DNA from: Dehalococcoidia bacterium
GTDB taxonomy: Bacteria; Chloroflexota; Dehalococcoidia; Lucifugimonadales; UBA1127
Direction of reading: 5' to 3'
NCBI GenBank assembly: GCA_034422455.1
Contig: DAOUJQ010000013.1
Location: forward strand, 98,110 to 162,109
DNA: 64,000 nucleotides
Both the position numbers and the translations under genes were made by a program. Shown here piece by piece: positions 2,516-58,740 of the stretch (positions are counted from its first letter, which is position 1; each line of letters begins with the position of its first letter). The notes beneath the pieces were generated by a model. The model did no database searches. It saw nothing but the letters and a program-made list of their open reading frames with translations, and was not told the DNA's origin.

Positions 2516-3345
2516 CCCCCCGTTCGCCCTGAGCCTGTCGAAGGGCCTAGCTCCCACCGTCGTTCCTGCGCAGGCAGAGCCTGTCCCCGCGTAGGCGGGG
2601 AAACCCAGAGGTGCGGGGTCGGGTGGGGCACGCCCGCCTTGGATGTCTCCTCTTGCCGCCCGCACCCGCCGTTCGCCCTGAGCCTGTCGAAGGGCGCCCC
2701 TCCCCCAACCCCCCATACCGGCGCATGCCGGTATCCAGAAGCCTCGCGCCCAACGACGCCCGCGCACCCCCTGCCACCACCCCCTCGCGCGAACGCCGTC
2801 CCCCCGCTACCCTCGCCCCATGCACCGCCACCACAACCCCGGCGCCATTTCCCCCTCCCCTCTCGTGGGGAAGGGCCCCCTTTCCGATTGCCCTGAGCCT
2901 GTCGAAGGGTCCCGCGCAGGCGGGACCCCAGAGGGGCGGGGCGCACGCCGGCCGGGATTCGTTTCCCCTCGGTGAATATTTGTGTTGTATCTGCAACGTG
3001 CCAACTCCCCTACAAAACAAAAAGCAAGACGAATCCCGGCAGCTACGCCGGACGCGGGGCGCGCCCCAACCTCCCTCCCCCATACCGGCGCATGCCGGTA
3101 TCCAGAAACCCCGCGCCCAACCACCCTCTCCGATTGCCCTGAGCTTGTCGAAGGGTCCTGCGCAGGCAGAGCCTGCCCCTGCGTAGGCAGGGGAACCCAG
3201 AGGGGCGGGGTCTGGGTGGGGCCGTTCGCCCTGAGCCTGTCGAAGGGTCGCCCTGGGCCTGTCCTGAGGCTCTCGAAGGGCCTGTCGAAGGGTCGCCCTG
3301 ACACCGTCCCGTTGCCCCCAAGCTCCATCCGCTCGTACCCTGCCC
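2516..3345 (+). repeat. repeat hub II: nested R1, R2, R3 modules and composite-element copy A
   Basis: R1 core CCGTTCGCCCTGAGCCTGTCGAAGGG at 2519, 2668 and 3220 (variants at 2881 and 3128). Long R2 at 2558 and 3155. R3 (CATACCGGCGCATGCCGGTATCCAGAA) at 2703 and 3079. There is no regular spacing. Confidence 0.9.
2765..3055 (+). repeat. composite element (CE) copy A: GC-rich 5' module, then nested R1/R2, then AT-rich 3' hairpin module
   Basis: 5' module CACCCCCTGCCAC..CGCTACCCTCGCCCCATGCACCGCCACCA. 3' module CCGGGATTCGT(2952-2962)..TTGTATCTGCAACGTGCCAAC..ACGAATCCCGG(3029-3039)CAGCTAC. Homologous to the copies at 3294, 48229, 51443 and 58368. Confidence 0.8.
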
Positions 3346-3465
3346 TGGCAGGTTGAAACGGCACGGCAAAGCAGGGATCGTTTGTAAATTTTTTCGCTTT
3401 GTAGCTGAGATTTGCCAAATCAGCTATAAAGCGAATCGCAAATCAATTCCTCTCGGCTACGCGCT
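3294..3465 (+). repeat. composite element copy D
   Basis: CGCCCTGACAC..CGCTCGTACCCTGCCC 5' module. 3' module has a 12-bp hairpin CTTTGTAGCTGA(3397-3408)/TCAGCTATAAAG(3420-3431) including one G-T (G-U) pair, with loop GATTTGCCAAA. A truncated GGGAATTGTT restart lies at 3468. Confidence 0.7.
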
Positions 3466-8828: not shown

Positions 8829-9974
8829 CTACGCTGCCGCGTGCTCCTCGACGGCCTCACCCTCCACCCGAACGCGAACGAAGTCCCTTTCAGCCTCGCG
8901 GACGTGGCCGTTCCGGTCGCCCCGCTGTGCGTCGCGGGCCCGCTCCAGCCGCTCCTCGGCGATGCGGTCCGCCGCCTCGTGCGGTGGGAGGCCGTGTTTG
9001 CGGGAAACGTGCAGCACCCGCGTCACCGTTTCCTCGATGTCCCGCACGCGCTCTCGGGCAACGCACTCGTCGTAGCCGTCAACCTCGACCGCGAGGTTGA
9101 TCACCCCGCCGGCGTTGATGATGAAGTCGGGCACGTACACGATGCCCCGGTTCCACAGCTGCCTGCCGTTCTCCGGCGTCAGCAACTGGTTGTTGGCCGC
9201 GCCGGCGACCACCTTGGAGCGCAGGCGTCGAATGGTGTCGCAGTTCAGCACGCCACCGAGCGCGCAGGGCGCGAACACGTCGGCCTGGACGTCGTAGATG
9301 GCGTCCGGGTCCTGCAGGACTGTGCAGTTGAGCCCACGCGCCCGCTCCAGCGCCGCCGGGTTCACGTCGGTCACGGTGATGCGCGCCCCCTCGGCGAGCA
9401 GGTGCTCCACCAGGGAGGTCGCCACCTTGCCGAAGCCCTGCACGGCGACCGACACGTCCTTCAGCGTGTCAGTGCCCAGGGTCTCCCGCACGGCGGCCTT
9501 CATGCCCTTGTAGATGCCGAAGCCGGTGATGTGGGAGGTGTTGCCGCTGCCGCCGTATTGGGCCGGCAGCCCCACGACGTGCCTTGTCTCCTCGCTTATC
9601 GCGACGAGGTGCTCAGGCCTGACGCCGACGTCCTCCGTGGTGATGTACCGTCCGCCCAGGGAGTCGACGTGGCGGCCGAAGGCACGGATCGCCGCGTCGC
9701 TGACGCCCGTCTTCGGGTCGGCCCAGATGAGCGCCTTGCCGCCGCCGAAATCGAGGCCCGCGGCCGCGCTCTTGTACGTCATCGCGCGGGCCAGCCGCAG
9801 CACGTCATTCACCGCATCCTCTTCCGTCGCATGGGGCCAGATGCGCACGCCGCCAAGGGACGGCCCAAGGGTAGTGTCGTGGATGCAGATGAACGCTCGG
9901 AGGCCGGAACTCTTGTCAACTGCCACCAGCAACTGCTCGTAGTCGCCGGTCTGCATGGTGTCGATCACGTCCAT
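8829..9974 (-). CDS. Leu/Phe/Val-type amino-acid dehydrogenase (leucine dehydrogenase-like)
   Basis: AFICIHDTTLGPSLGGVRIWP, AAAGLDFGGGKALI, Rossmann VAVQGFGKVA. Start trimmed to ATG 9974. Confidence 0.85.
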   Translation of the reverse strand: MDVIDTMQTGDYEQLLVAVDKSSGLRAFICIHDTTLGPSLGGVRIWPHATEEDAVNDVLRLARAMTYKSAAAGLDFGGGKALIWADPKTGVSDAAIRAFGRHVDSLGGRYITTEDVGVRPEHLVAISEETRHVVGLPAQYGGSGNTSHITGFGIYKGMKAAVRETLGTDTLKDVSVAVQGFGKVATSLVEHLLAEGARITVTDVNPAALERARGLNCTVLQDPDAIYDVQADVFAPCALGGVLNCDTIRRLRSKVVAGAANNQLLTPENGRQLWNRGIVYVPDFIINAGGVINLAVEVDGYDECVARERVRDIEETVTRVLHVSRKHGLPPHEAADRIAEERLERARDAQRGDRNGHVREAERDFVRVRVEGEAVEEHAAA

Positions 9975-10173
9975 CGTGTGCCTCCTCTCCGGCGCCTGCG
10001 GGAACAGGCGTCGCGATCGACTATGTTCCTCTCCTTCCATTGTAGCCCAAAATCGACCGTTGTGACGAATTTCGTCGCGGTATTTCAAGCGAATCCTGAG
10101 GACGCCAATGGAAGGAGGGACAAGACATCGGTGGGACGGGCGGGCTGGAGGCAGTGGAAGCCGGAAGGGCGGC

Positions 10174-26440: not shown

Positions 26441-26625
26441 CCCGACCTCTTCATACCGCCGAATGCCGGTATCCAGAAACCCCGCGCCCAACGACCCCCG
26501 CAATCGCCAGCCCTAGACTCGTCGTTCCTGCGGAGGCAGGAACCCAGAGGGGCGGGGGAGAGAGGGGCCGTTCGCCCTTACCGCGCCCTGAGCTTGCCGA
26601 AGGCGCCCCGTCCCACCCTGCCATC
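26441..26625 (+). repeat. repeat cluster III (R3, short R2, degenerate R1)
   Basis: CATACCGCCGAATGCCGGTATCCAGAAACCCCGCGCCCAAC; GTCGTTCCTGCGGAGGCAGGAACCCAGAGGGGCGGGG; CCGTTCGCCCTT..CCCTGAGCTTGCCGAAGG. Confidence 0.85.
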
Positions 26626-26997
26626 CCCCCCTTGTGCCTGCGCGTGCTCCATCGATACCCTCTCCACATGAAGCCCGCGACAAACCGCCCAAAATCCTTT
26701 CCTGCGGCAACTTCTGCGATCATCCACAGCTATGGAAAACGCCGCAGTCGTCCTGGCCGCTCGAATGCATCGACTCCTATCTACGCATTGCCCCGCCAGA
26801 TAGGGTCATTTCCTCTTTTCAGTTTTTTCTTTCGTTTTCCTATCTGGAATCGGCTCTTCCAGATACGGGTCGTTTACCCAGAACGACCAGGTCTTGCATA
26901 CGAGTCGATTTTGGGTATCTGCCCAGGGCAACAATTGCTGCACATAGAAAGAGGAAGGTCAGGCTTCAAGGAGAACCCCGCACGGCGGCGCTGTGCC

Positions 26998-31718: not shown

Positions 31719-31821
31719 AGAGTGCCCTGCGGCCCTTCCACAGGCTCAGGGCGACGGGATGATAAGTAAGAGGGACGCCCGCTTGGGCGTCCCTCTTGAC
31801 GTTCTGGATTAGTCGTGCGGC

Positions 31822-43113: not shown

Positions 43114-43422
43114 TCACGCATCGATGACCCGTCGCAAGGCCTCGTTCATTCTCGTCTGCCAGCCCCTTCCGCTGGCGCGGAAGTAGGCGACAACCCCCGC
43201 ATCGAGCCGCAGCGTGACCTTTTCCTTCGTGGGAGCCTTCTGCTTGCCGCGTGCGCGCCGGTGTCGCTCCACGATATGCGGCACGGCTTCGACGGCGGGA
43301 CGAGCTCGCTGCCAATCCTCGTCCGTCCATTCAGGGGCGTCCGGGTCCAGCGCGATCTCGCGTTGGGTCGCCGCCTCTTCCGCATCGGTCGGAACGGCCA
43401 CCTCACGGCGACTCTGCAACAT
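43114..43422 (-). CDS. brnA: BrnA-family antitoxin
   Basis: C-terminal KVTLRLDAGVVAYFRASGRGWQTRMNEALRRVI. AAGGAGAGGAG before ATG 43422. Confidence 0.75.
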   Translation of the reverse strand: MLQSRREVAVPTDAEEAATQREIALDPDAPEWTDEDWQRARPAVEAVPHIVERHRRARGKQKAPTKEKVTLRLDAGVVAYFRASGRGWQTRMNEALRRVIDA

Positions 43423-43525
43423 ATCTGCTCCTCTCCTTTTTGCTCGCCAGCCGCAGGCTGATGATGCGTGTCTTGTCCCCACGCTCCGTGAATACAACGT
43501 TGGTCTTGTTCTTAGTCAGTTCCAT
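43403..43525 (-). pseudogene. brnT: 5'-truncated BrnT (DUF497) toxin remnant
   Basis: Only the C-terminal ~30 aa of the family remain (VVFTERGDKTRIISLRLASKKERSRY). The expected N-terminal ~60 aa are missing and replaced by AT-rich non-coding sequence. Confidence 0.55.
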
Positions 43526-47731: not shown

Positions 47732-47938
47732 ATGCCCCCCATCTTGAAGCACGCCCCGCGCTTCCTGCTTTCCTTCGGCGGCGCCCTCTTCGGCATCAGC
47801 GTGCTTATCCTCATCATCGCCGAGGGCCGGCCGGGCATCCTCTACGTCATGGGCGGCATCGGCCTGCTTCTTGTGGCCTTCGGGCTCACCCTCTACTTCT
47901 TCACGGAGGGAGTCGGCGGCCGCCGCACCGGGTACTAG
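47732..47938 (+). CDS. hypothetical small membrane protein
   Basis: 68 aa with two hydrophobic helices. The ATG lies 4 nt after the preceding stop. Confidence 0.4.
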   Translation: MPPILKHAPRFLLSFGGALFGISVLILIIAEGRPGILYVMGGIGLLLVAFGLTLYFFTEGVGGRRTGY

Positions 47939-47939
47939 C

Positions 47940-48605
47940 CATCCCCGAATCGTCATTCCCGCGAAAGCGGGAATCCAGAGGTGTGGTGCTGAGAGGGCCG
48001 TTCGTCCTGAGGGAAATCGAAGGACGAACCGGGGGGCGCCCCATCCCCACCCCCTCATACCGGCGCATGCCGGTATCCAGAAACCCCGCGCCCAACGGCC
48101 CCTTCCGATTGCCCTGAGCTTGTCGAAGGGTCCTGCGCAGGCAGAGCCTGTCCCCGCGTAGGCGGGGAAACCCAGAGGGGCGGGGAAGGGAGGGGGAACC
48201 CCCACCGCGCGACAGGCAGAAGAACCATCACCCCCTGCCACTACCCCCTCGCGCGAACGCCATCCCGCCCGCTACCCTCGCCCCATGCACCGCCACCAAA
48301 ACAGCACAACCGCCCTGCTTATCGCCCCGCGAAGGGCCGGGAATTGTTCCCCCCTGATGAAAAAATTTTTGTCTTGTATCTACAACGTGCCAACTCAGCT
48401 TCAACACGAAAAACAAAACAATTCCCTGCAGCTACGCCGGACGCGGAAAAACTCTGCCCCGCACACCCGCCTACCCCAACCCCTCATACCGGCGAATGGT
48501 CACTCCGTACCCCGATACGGGGTTGGGATGGGGGTCGTAGGGGCGACCCTTGTGGTCGCCCTCCCGTTCGCCCTGAGCCTGTCGAAGGGTCAGCCGAACG
48601 GCGGC
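47940..48605 (+). repeat. repeat hub V (R2 variants, R1 variants, R3 x2, CE copy B)
   Basis: GTCATTCCCGCGAAAGCGGGAATCCAGAGG (47951), R3 at 48052 and 48481, R1 variant at 48092, long R2 at 48130, R1 at 48563 abutting the modC stop. Confidence 0.9.
48229..48445 (+). repeat. composite element copy B
   Basis: CACCCCCTGCCAC..CGCTACCCTCGCCCCATGCACCGCCACCA, then GGGAATTGTT(48329-48338)..TTGTATCTACAACGTGCCAAC..AACAATTCCC(48417-48426)TGCAGCTAC. Confidence 0.8.
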
Positions 48606-51375: not shown

Positions 51376-51442
51376 CGGCGCACCTTGGTTGGAGTGCTCC
51401 AATGCTAGCACAGCGCGTTCGGTCATGGCCGGGGCGCACGTC

Positions 51443-51640
51443 CGCACCCTGACACCTGCGTATTGCCCGTGCGCGGCGACCGCCGGTAACCTCGCTTCAT
51501 GGGCATCGCAACAAGGAATCCGACCGGGCGTTCAGCAGAGGGATTCGTTTCCGCAACGTGCGTTTTCGTCTTGTAGCTGAAATGTGCCACGGTAGCTACG
51601 ATCACGAATGAGAAAACGAACTCCCGCAGCTACAGGGGGC
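51443..51640 (+). repeat. composite element copy C
   Basis: CGCACCCTGACAC..CCGGTAACCTCGCTTCATGGGCATCGCAACAA, then GGGATTCGTTT(51540-51550)..CTTGTAGCTGAAATGTGCCACGGTAGCTAC..AAACGAACTCCC GCAGCTACA. Confidence 0.75.
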
Positions 51641-51714: not shown

Positions 51715-51723
51715 TGGTATAGT
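51715..51723 (+). promoter_or_regulatory. possible extended -10 (TGgTATAGT) upstream of acnA
   Basis: TGGTATAGT lies 42 nt before ATG 51765. No convincing -35. Confidence 0.35.
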
Positions 51724-51764
51724 GCACGTGTCCCATGGTATTCCCGCAGAGGAGAACGCCCGCA

Positions 51765-58213: not shown

Positions 58214-58367
58214 GGTCTGCTCCTTGGGCGCATGAAATGCCGCTCGGCATCTGGTGGTTACAGGGTCATTATAGCGCACGGGCGCCTCTCACGTTCTCGC
58301 GACGCTAGCCCTTTGCGTACCCCTTTCCCCGCGACACCGGAGGCTGGGGATACACGCCGCGACCGTC

Positions 58368-58740
58368 CCCACCCTGACACGGCTCCATTGCGCCGGCGCA
58401 GCGCCGCCCGCTACGCTCCCCCCATGCAAAGCCACAGCAATGCCCTCAACAGAGCTTCGAGGCCGCCGATGAAAACACCGGCGACGCGGCCTCCGGCCCA
58501 GTCGCGCGTTGTCAGGCCGGAGAAAATTGGGACTCGTTTCCTCTATTGCAGAATTCGTTCTGTAGCTGAGACGTGCCATTCCGGATACAAAACGAAGACC
58601 AAACGAGACCTCCCTCAGCCTTGGAACTCGTTTCTGCAAATTTGCAAATTTTGGTTTTGTAGCTGAGACATGCCTTTCCGGATACAAAACGAAGACCAGA
58701 CGGGACCTCCCTCAGCTACAACAAACGACGAAACGAGTTA
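58368..58740 (+). repeat. composite element copy E with tandemly duplicated 3' module
   Basis: CCCACCCTGACAC..CGCTACGCTCCCCCCATGCAAAGCCACAGCAA, then two 3' units. The 59-nt core TGTAGCTGAGAC(G/A)TGCC..CCTCCCTCAGC occurs at 58561-58619 and 58658-58716. 11-bp stem TTGTAGCTGAG/CTCAGCTACAA (58657-58667 / 58711-58721). Confidence 0.8.

Follow-up and report, generated by a model that had tools for sequence, protein, structure and literature searches.

What kind of element lies scattered between the genes of a 64,000-nucleotide (nt) stretch of an uncultured Dehalococcoidia bacterium (contig DAOUJQ010000013.1; the whole stretch is called the window in the following), and is it read as RNA or as DNA? 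A first-pass annotation had described five loci in this window, each composed of a 5′ module and a 3′ module whose stem is maintained by compensatory base changes, and had considered a small RNA (sRNA) family, a structured single-stranded DNA (ssDNA) site, or an old miniature inverted-repeat transposable element (MITE). All five loci belong to one non-coding repeat that is dispersed in the genomes of uncultured Dehalococcoidia and has a promoter-like head and a palindromic tail. Three aspects had been overlooked, namely the promoter-like 5′ module, a polarity relative to the replication strand, and the existence of gene-containing relatives. With moderate confidence, we regard the element as a clade-specific, high-copy, strand-polarised interspersed mosaic repeat that resembles the repetitive extragenic palindromic (REP) sequences and bacterial interspersed mosaic elements (BIMEs), and that represents the gene-less version of a cassette in which a promoter is followed by a gene similar to terS, the phage small-terminase gene, and by an array of sites. 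The element is more likely a mobile or recognition element at the DNA level than a folded RNA.

The repeat and its two modules

The five loci exist at the places described, and far beyond chance: the 5′ pattern CCCTGMCAY-N7-TYGNNC-N17/18-TAMSST-N5-CAWG has five matches in the window and none in shuffled sequences, and the 3′ pattern TTNGNNNTGTAKCTRNNANNTGCCN8TWYRA has six (2979, 3393, 48368, 51565, 58554, and 58651) and none in 100 shuffles, all of them on the + strand. Reading and aligning the loci likewise bore out a composite, two-module, multi-copy family. Only the count was incomplete, as a search with a hidden Markov model (HMM) found six 5′ modules, again all on the + strand (2766, 3295, 26612, 48231, 51442, and 58367), and the locus at 26612–26680 had been missed; after its 5′ module comes a variant 3′ part that is based on TATCTGG/CCAGATA. 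The window holds six 5′ modules and six canonical 3′ modules, copy E having two 3′ modules in tandem, 97 nt apart, and all six copies in the 64 kb are intergenic. With each species represented by one genome, scanning for the 5′ pattern gave at least 85 loci; among the matches listed, all but one belong to seven metagenome-assembled genomes (MAGs) of Dehalococcoidia/Chloroflexota, with up to ~20 matches per genome, and the single chance match outside the clade is from an archaeon. The AcnA relatives of the window are annotated as Chloroflexota or Dehalococcoidia, and one window protein is also encoded on the ENA metagenome scaffold NGUY21-1_SAMN17524325 scaffold_386. To judge from the source names, the bacteria may come from sponge, coral or marine hosts. 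A viral origin of the repeat was rejected, as the 5′ pattern has no match in IMG/VR and the 3′ pattern has one chance match, which lies within a coding region. A tRNA search of the loci found none.

In the 96 oriented copies that were extracted for the family comparison, the 5′ module has the consensus cccccaCCCTGaCAC..cCcCcTtGCcCc(N)CGCTACCcTccCccCATG, with four conserved blocks (CCCTGACAC, TTGCCC, CGCTACCCT, and CATG) separated by spacers that are fixed in length and variable in sequence. The arrangement is promoter-like and has leaderless geometry: the −35-like TTGCCC is followed after 18 nt (91/96 copies) by the −10-like TACCCT (TAnnnT), and 6 nt further by the A of an invariant ATG, so that the first T of TANNNT lies 12 nt upstream of the ATG. 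TANNNT at that distance is the signature of leaderless genes, and its middle positions are uninformative in high-GC taxa (PMC3160421). Judged by this geometry, the 5′ module is probably a sigma-70-type promoter, with the A of the fixed ATG as its predicted start. Sigma-54, EcfG, and RirA-box readings of the motifs were discarded, as the spacings do not fit and the AcnA relatives are from Chloroflexota, not from alphaproteobacteria. Structure within the 5′ module was ruled out as well, as there is no internal covariation or pairing and no mutual information at pairable positions, and a long-range pairing of CCCTGACAC with a downstream TGTCAGGG, seen in copy E, is present in just 6/96 copies.

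The element is also neither the dedicated promoter of a downstream gene nor the terminator of a convergent one, as the next gene is co-oriented with it in 47 cases and runs against it in 35. The acnA and M48 peptidase genes next to window copies each retain their own conserved promoter: an upstream box TGGTATAGTGC (extended −10) and a ribosome-binding site AGAGGAGAAC are conserved before acnA in the window (box at 51718–51735) and in three syntenic relatives (L003, ~9958–9975; L004, ~9950–9967; L005, ~9955–9972), and the M48 peptidase gene has retained a TATAAT box (cattatagcg on the + strand, 58268–58277). Ordinary promoters in these genomes are AT-rich, in contrast to the TACCCT of the element.

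The spacer after the ATG is non-coding, as had been noted before: substitutions between related copies are distributed 131:101:101 over codon positions 1:2:3. A small-peptide gene was rejected on account of this flat distribution, of translations from the fixed ATG that differ between copies, and of a coding signature in third-codon-position GC content (GC3) that occurs only in the TerS-like open reading frames (ORFs) described below. The otherwise fast-evolving spacer of several subfamilies contains, ~75–100 nt past the ATG, an island GGTCCGCATCGATGG with the palindromic core CATCGATG (L015, L025, L087, L064, L023, L010, L026, L051, and L068; absent from the window copies), which is possibly a further recognition site.

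The 3′ module is a palindrome of 85–100 nt, AT-rich in a genome of 67% GC, in which a fixed GTA[G/T]CTG-N13-CAGCTAC pair is enclosed by variable, mutually matching arms. This inverted heptamer pair is the best-conserved stretch (ttgGatTTGTAgCTG.aAtG.G.cac..CAGCTACaAa), and its gap of 13 nt is fixed in 39/43 non-redundant copies. In the usual layout, GTAGCTG-N13-CAGCTAC is followed by one to three more CAGCTAC(G) as direct CAGCTACG repeats with a period of ~34 nt. A census within 500 nt from the ATG counted 77 CAGCTAC, 32 GTAGCTG, 22 GTATCTG, and 17 CAGATAC. The Type II subtype (CGAGTC-GTATCTG-N13-GTATCTG-ACTCG) keeps the 13-nt spacing, with its two heptamers in direct orientation and inversion confined to the flanks. 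On the complementary strand, the GTAG-containing CGTAGCTG precedes the outer-stem foot by 2–4 nt in copies A, B, and C, and the heptamer is also found inside the stem. No sense-strand terminator was found in the element. On the minus strand, a GC hairpin around GTAGCTG with a T-rich arm scores terminator-like (3052–3035 and 51636–51623), and the loop TTGGCA with an A-rich tract scores sigma-70-like in copy A; these may be antisense signals within the 3′ module.

Copies A and D share the spacer between the convergent genes for an ABC ATPase and a phosphoribosyltransferase. The 5′ module of copy A (2765..2824, +; pattern and HMM matches) consists of the upstream box CCCTGCCAC, a −35-like TCGCGC, a 17-nt spacer, a −10-like TACCCT, and C-ATG at 2820, and its homology with copy B starts at CACCCCCTG. 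GC-rich REP-type repeats (2850..2945, +; REP-a at 2890) are nested in the spacer, outside the family core, and the 3′ module (2954..3057, +; 93.5 bits with the covariance model R1 introduced below, and fold) has the outer arms GGGATTCGT and ACGAATCCC, the inner TGTATCTG-N13-CCCCTAC, and the terminal CAGCTACGCCGGACGCGG. Copy D has a degenerate 5′ module without CATG (3295..3344, +; HMM E=8e-5, and alignment) and a 3′ module (3373..3461, +; R1 78.3 bits, fold z = −4.5) with a near-perfect 16-bp inner hairpin, TTCGCTTTGTAGCTGA/TCAGCTATAAAGCGAA. The sixth copy has its 5′ module at 26612..26680 (+; pattern and HMM), and its variant, GTATCTG-type 3′ part (~26776..26880, +; read from the sequence and the heptamer map) forms the palindromes CCTATCT..AGATAGG and TTTCGTTTTC-CTATCTGG-N11-CCAGATAC-GGGTCGTTT. 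Copy B, between a chlorite-dismutase-like gene and a modC-like gene, has a 5′ module close to that of copy A (48231..48289, +; alignment, pattern, and HMM) and a 3′ module (48339..48446, +; R1 87.7 bits, and fold) with the arms GGGAATTGT and ACAATTCCC and, again, the terminal CAGCTACGCCGGACGCGG. Copy C lies between a modA-like gene and acnA, which are divergent (5′ module 51442..51511, +, pattern and HMM; 3′ module 51540..51634, +, R1 88 bits). Copy E, between the M48 peptidase gene and an EamA gene, comprises a 5′ module (58367..58433, +; pattern and HMM), a first 3′ module (58529..58619, +; R1 69.2 bits, direct repeat D1), and the second, tandem one with the 97-nt period (58623..58740, +; R1 57.7 bits, repeats I4 and D1).

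The element is a discrete unit that is gained, lost or flipped between close relatives. Paralogues within one genome (L009/L075, L032/L069, and window A/B) are 73–95% identical from about −56 to +240, and their flanks are unrelated; similarly, L007 and L046 have everything from −56 onwards in common and nothing upstream. In the orthologous pair L017/L018, the promoter (89% identity) and the 3′ module (88–92%) are conserved like the flanking genes, in contrast to the spacer (65–67%). In L003, L004, and L005, whose AcnA is 93, 90, and 89% identical to that of the window, copies B and C are missing: the modA–acnA spacers are 94–158 nt long, compared to ~390 nt in the window, cannot be aligned with that of the window, and the modA-like gene and acnA keep their own conserved promoter-like boxes. 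The M48–EamA spacer of L003 and L004 contains a 5′ module on the opposite strand, together with variant 3′ modules, and the element is inverted relative to its flanks. An inverton was rejected, as no inverted repeats were found around copy E. The borders of copies A and B (CACCCCCTG... to ...CAGCTACGCCGGACGCGG) show neither terminal inverted repeats nor target duplications, and one end is not the inverse of the other. The M48–EamA spacer is also a repeat hot spot, with about four units of ~30 nt (cctcgctaccgtcattcccgccagcctgcc) in L005 (17370–17480) and repeated gcaggaaggacgagag units in L004 (16800–16940).

Covariation of the palindrome arms

The outer stem pairs GGGATTCG at 2954 with CGAATCCC at 3030 in copy A, and GGGAATTG at 48339 with CAATTCCC at 48419 in copy B. 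The double change at two positions between these copies is as it had been described, except that the left arm of copy B had been placed 10 nt too low (48329–48337). Minimum-energy folding recovers the outer stem in A, B, C, D, and E3a (z-scores −1.1 to −4.5). A second, inner palindrome had been reported for C, D, and E; it is perfect in D with one G:T pair and partial in C, but in E the proximal inner arm is degenerate (CCGGATAC) and the left arm pairs with a distal CTCAGCTACAA instead.

That the arms co-vary stood up to statistical analysis. The covariance model R1, built from five window copies with both helices, found 43 copies at E<0.01 in the 790 kb of fetched loci, six of these in the window. 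In the R1 alignment, 81.1% of the cells pair. Shuffled alignments give 72.5%, and none of 500 attains the observed figure; their covariation score is 0.156, compared with 0.289 for the real alignment. Controls with partners slid give 32–48% pairing, and double changes occur at 11/11 outer pairs. The structure was built into this alignment; tests that need no alignment agree with its result. The right flank of a copy complements its own left flank better than those of other copies (local score 7.63 vs 6.49; 0/20,000 permutations reach the observed value, p<5e-5), and the duplex energy gives p=0.0007; own partners are the best partners in just 4/43 copies, and the outer stem is missing in some subfamilies (L010 and L026).

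The covariation had been taken as a sign of selection on a plus-strand RNA or ssDNA fold, and here our analyses point elsewhere. In the best stems, scored without favouring either transition mismatch, there are 15 G:T and 15 A:C mismatches, and the ungapped inner stem has 42 and 35, respectively. G:T is not preferred over A:C, and the single G-T pair of copy D, which had been regarded as an indication of such a fold, therefore carries no weight. The sole variable position inside the heptamers (GC 19, TA 4, TC 10, GA 6) has the counts that independence of the arms predicts, with 16 broken versus 4 compensated cells. A comparison with Rfam (Rfam 15), which had been suggested as a check, gave nothing at gathering scores and only chance-level matches at E up to 10. 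The equal mismatches, the uncompensated heptamer position, and the subtype with direct repeats together with the unpaired direct copies argue for a repeated recognition unit at the DNA level whose arms are kept alike, and the 3′ module is thus probably read as DNA rather than as an RNA fold. The best reading of the compensatory changes in the outer arms is that two inverted-repeat arms evolve together, and compensatory changes between such arms should not by themselves be taken as evidence of RNA structure. As the RNA-structure reading lacks its expected signatures, we consider it unlikely.

Strand polarity and replication

The sense strand of the element is the C-rich strand in 83/90 loci (92%, p=1e-17). 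In the window, the + strand is C-rich in 14/16 bins of 4 kb and carries six out of six copies, and the terS-like cassettes lie on the C-rich strand in nine of ten cases. Calculated from coding sequence only and read on the strand of the element, the skew is −0.080 in genes that share its orientation and −0.068 in those that oppose it, and this similarity indicates an asymmetry of the replication type, caused neither by the gene strand nor by the repeats themselves. The usual G>C rule would make the sense strand the lagging one; tRNA genes, as a second criterion for the leading strand, are split 10:6, with no clear preference.

The syntenic relatives provide a natural experiment. When oriented alike, the same block has a GC skew of −0.057 in the window (37018–64000) and of +0.055, +0.045, and +0.083 in L003–L005; it lies on opposite replication strands in the window and in these relatives, and the skew has re-equilibrated. 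The element in the M48–EamA spacer is on the + strand in the window and on the − strand in L003 and L004, and thereby on the C-rich strand each time. The orientation follows the reversal of the skew, which confirms the link between polarity and skew.

Such polarity is not restricted to the element. REP-a (GCCCTGAGCCTGTCGAAGGG), an unrelated GC-rich repeat, is distributed 17:1 (+:−) in the window, with + strand sites at 2526, 2675, 2890, 3136, 3228, 3261, 26585, 37862, 37992, 38461, 39224, 48111, 48570, 50464, 50545, 54609, and 60506 and a − strand site at 31733, and 80:4 in favour of the C-rich strand in the other loci. Two further repeats, CATACCGGCGCATGCCGGTATCCAGAA and CCTGCGCAGGCAGAGCCTGTCCCCGCGTAGGCGGGGAA, occur 4:0 and 5:0 in the window. 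As these repeats are equally polarised, strand polarity is general to the repeats of this clade, and it suggests a replication-coupled, strand-specific spread or maintenance. A replication-linked orientation bias has been documented for single-strand (HUH) transposition (PMC5027513).

Orphan terS-like genes and the nature of the element

At ten loci, a real gene starts exactly at the fixed ATG, without a Shine–Dalgarno sequence, and encodes a protein of 101–146 amino acids (aa) with the motif KKRGAPxGNQNARKHGLYS. These ORFs (508–933 in L013, and the ATG-initiated ORFs of L035, L074, L081, L048, L040, L055, L060, L014, and L082) form one family, are the only ATG-initiated ones with a coding GC3/GC2 signature, and match profiles of terminase small subunits with E values of ~1e-5 to 1e-6 (PHROG 1889 and 509, and NCBIfam NF040601, the latter below cut-off); a Pfam search gave no match. 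With the ATG at the predicted start, they are apparently expressed as leaderless mRNAs. Every chromosomal terS-like ORF is directly followed by 3′ motifs like those of the window (CAGCTACG, GTATCTGG, and GATTGTTTC..GAAACAATC hairpins), in L082, L055, and L040 by a window-type 3′ module, and different TerS-like paralogues adjoin different array subtypes. Homologues are common on viral contigs, and in the two contigs examined they directly precede terL-like and portal genes (L093, 5989–9058; L098, 5525–8594). We saw terL and portal genes only beside these viral homologues: the neighbours of the L013 cassette, the only one whose surroundings were read, are ordinary-looking ORFs, such as an ABC-transporter-like set. 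The flanks of L013, L035, L048, L074, and L081 can be aligned and are syntenic across genomes. The AlphaFold model of the TerS-like protein is poor (pLDDT 61, pTM 0.33), too poor for a structure-based search for its function, and its profile has no sequence relative in the PDB.

These observations suggest how the element might work. In gene-containing copies, the 5′ promoter would drive a leaderless terS-like mRNA; in the window copies, it would give rise to a short non-coding transcript. The 3′ module would be an array of recognition sites, composed of the inverted heptamer pair, its direct copies, and the inverted flanking arms, whose sequence differs between subfamilies and matches within one copy, as in REP classes or transposon ends. 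Candidate readers of these sites are the TerS-like family, by analogy with terS genes beside pac sites, and a strand-specific enzyme of the HUH/REP type. The orientation, being tied to replication asymmetry, would then reflect replication-coupled, strand-specific spread or maintenance.

Several points weigh against this gene-less, mosaic-repeat interpretation. The window contains no terS-like gene, all of its six copies being gene-less, and ORF-less copies contain no significant terS-like remnant (the best is a 12-aa match in L068 with E=0.05), so that the "gene-less derivative" could as well be a case of "shared modules". Binding of TerS-like proteins to the arrays is argued from adjacency alone, given the poor model and the lack of a PDB relative, and promoter activity is deduced solely from geometry. 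The borders of A and B without terminal inverted repeats or target duplications, together with the hairpin-free 5′ end, fit neither a classical MITE nor IS200/IS605 ends, and a motif scan for a mobilising HUH/Y1 transposase in the 790 kb was empty, although this regular-expression scan was crude and is a weak test. A lagging sense strand would set the promoters head-on to replication, which is odd for a selected transcription unit. Finally, covariation of the outer arms is equally expected from an RNA or ssDNA hairpin, and the wobble test rests on just 30 and 77 mismatches.

Alternatively, the copies could be genes for small non-coding RNAs, with the 5′ module as their promoter and a plus-strand transcript of ~170–300 nt that folds into the 3′ hairpin and binds a protein or target RNAs through its conserved loop (AAUGYGNCA) and the CAGCUAC repeats. 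The promoter geometry with its fixed start, the non-coding spacer, the outer-helix covariation in 43 copies with own arms more complementary than those of others, the better preservation of promoter and 3′ module than of the spacer in L017/L018, and the occupation of all intergenic contexts, as by independent genes, would all fit. However, G:U is not preferred over A:C, the central heptamer position is uncompensated, the Type II heptamers are direct, the extra direct repeats have no pairing partner, and the outer stem is absent in some subfamilies, such as L010 and L026; moreover, there is neither a terminator on the sense strand nor an Rfam relative, and the polarity is common to REPs without a promoter, all of which makes sRNA genes improbable to us. 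The same wobble symmetry is unexpected for an ssDNA hairpin, and it thus also speaks against a non-autonomous element of the IS200/IS605 or REP–RAYT type that a Y1 HUH transposase, encoded at another place in the genome, moves as ssDNA at the replication fork, with hairpin and GTAG motif on the G-rich strand as the enzyme substrate and the promoter as cargo. This possibility would account for the extreme polarity that follows a replication-type skew, as documented for such transposition (PMC5027513), for REP-like traits (PMC3333891), namely the GTAG motif near the palindrome foot and the preserved complementarity of the arm classes, for the absence of terminal inverted repeats and target duplications, and for the equal polarity of the co-resident REP-a. 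We nevertheless find it doubtful, as the crude scan of the 790 kb showed no Y1/HUH gene, the 5′ end has no hairpin or other structure, the palindrome measures 85–100 nt instead of 30–40 nt, and the terS-like cassettes that are syntenic in several genomes resemble stable genes rather than transposons.

It is also conceivable that nothing moves, and that the 5′ modules are the promoter class of one sigma factor or activator and the 3′ modules operator arrays for paralogous TerS-like regulators, the similarity being due to functional convergence and local duplication. Block-wise conservation is typical of protein–DNA sites, and the 13-nt heptamer spacing (39/43 copies), the distinct TerS-like paralogues beside distinct array subtypes, and orthologous copies at the same position in related genomes agree with such a regulon. 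But paralogues also share the variable spacer, with sharp homology borders and unrelated flanks, which indicates common descent and not convergence. Furthermore, 35/82 copies point not towards the start of the next gene but towards its end or wrong strand, operators are not expected to be strand-polarised, and copy C is an insertion between two genes with conserved promoters of their own. This scenario therefore appears very improbable.

The interpretation as a strand-polarised mosaic repeat draws on known systems, none of which it matches in full. Like the REP/BIME sequences of enterobacteria with their RAYT (TnpA-REP) proteins, the element is high-copy, strictly intergenic, and a mosaic of modules, and other REP-like repeats (REP-a/b/c) are nested among its copies. 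REPs have a GTAG 5′ of an imperfect palindrome, and E. coli REP classes differ in sequence and keep complementarity (PMC3333891); the element shows a comparable arrangement, with an imperfect palindrome, arm classes that differ yet remain complementary, and, near the foot in A, B, and C, a GTAG-containing motif, which however belongs to a heptamer that also occurs inside the stem. In contrast to REPs, the palindrome is longer than 30–40 nt and AT-rich in a 67% GC genome, it includes the second, fixed-spacing heptamer pair and direct repeats, the head is promoter-like with a leaderless ATG, the replication-strand polarity is 92%, and no RAYT gene was seen in the crude 790-kb scan. With IS200/IS605 and their miniature derivatives, the element shares the lack of terminal inverted repeats and target duplications, the hairpin, and the replication-linked orientation bias (PMC5027513), but it has a hairpin at the 3′ end only, a promoter-like 5′ end, and no tnpA or tnpB was found. 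The MITE option of the first-pass annotation comes closest to the evidence insofar as a discrete unit is present, absent or inverted between relatives; terminal inverted repeats and target duplications were not found, nor was a parent insertion sequence with the same ends, the TerS-like ORFs being the only genes bracketed by both modules.

The Correia and ERIC families consist of small intergenic repeats that form hairpins, can supply promoter activity, and differ in their presence from strain to strain. Our element is similar in these respects, as far as its possible promoter goes, but has no sequence relation and lacks the 26-bp terminal inverted repeats and the TA duplication of the neisserial Correia elements, and we know of no comparable strand polarity in the Correia or ERIC families. 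In multi-copy sRNA families of Rfam, too, each intergenic unit stands alone, with a promoter of its own and a conserved hairpin; the element differs by the missing Rfam match, terminator, and G:U signature, and by its direct, DNA-type repeats. Phage terS genes commonly contain or adjoin their pac sites. The resemblance to phage terS–pac/cos regions lies in a small-terminase homologue that is followed by short repeated sites, inverted and direct, in ten related loci, and the difference in that the chromosomal genes are orphan and syntenic, and most site arrays, including all six in the window, are gene-less and scattered. It would be a bolder, and in our view quite unlikely, step to regard the arrays as pac-like chromosomal loading sites for orphan TerS-like proteins, acting in a host or domesticated packaging, transfer or organisation process similar to gene transfer agents or lateral transduction, or as a replication-polarised mobile promoter cassette with a TerS-like trans-acting factor. 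In the pac-like case, each site would have its own leaderless-type promoter, and all would point one way relative to replication.

If the element is indeed a gene-less, strand-polarised mosaic repeat, uncultured high-GC Dehalococcoidia carry tens or more promoter-bearing repeats per genome, whose orientation is strictly coupled to the replication strand and is adjusted once a chromosomal block has switched strand. This would constitute a clean natural system for the strand-specific spread or selection of repeats (83:7, and 80:4 for the second family), and would offer a marker of replication direction in fragmented MAGs. To our knowledge, these ratios exceed any known for enterobacterial REPs. 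It would also establish an unexpected link between interspersed repeats and orphan homologues of phage small terminases, possibly as trans-acting partners.

Some neighbouring genes of the window deserve mention. A large serine recombinase gene (3–1412, +), with Resolvase, Recombinase, and zinc-ribbon domains, extends beyond the left edge and may mark an integrated element. A BrnT/BrnA-like toxin–antitoxin pair (43114–43525, −) corresponds to L001 6097–6508, and is not among the listed genes of L003–L005 at the corresponding place. Directly after the chlorite-dismutase-like gene, an ORF of 67–68 aa with no Pfam match is found in all four genomes (window 47732–47938, +; L003 6361–6567; L004 7011–7214; L005 6933–7136).

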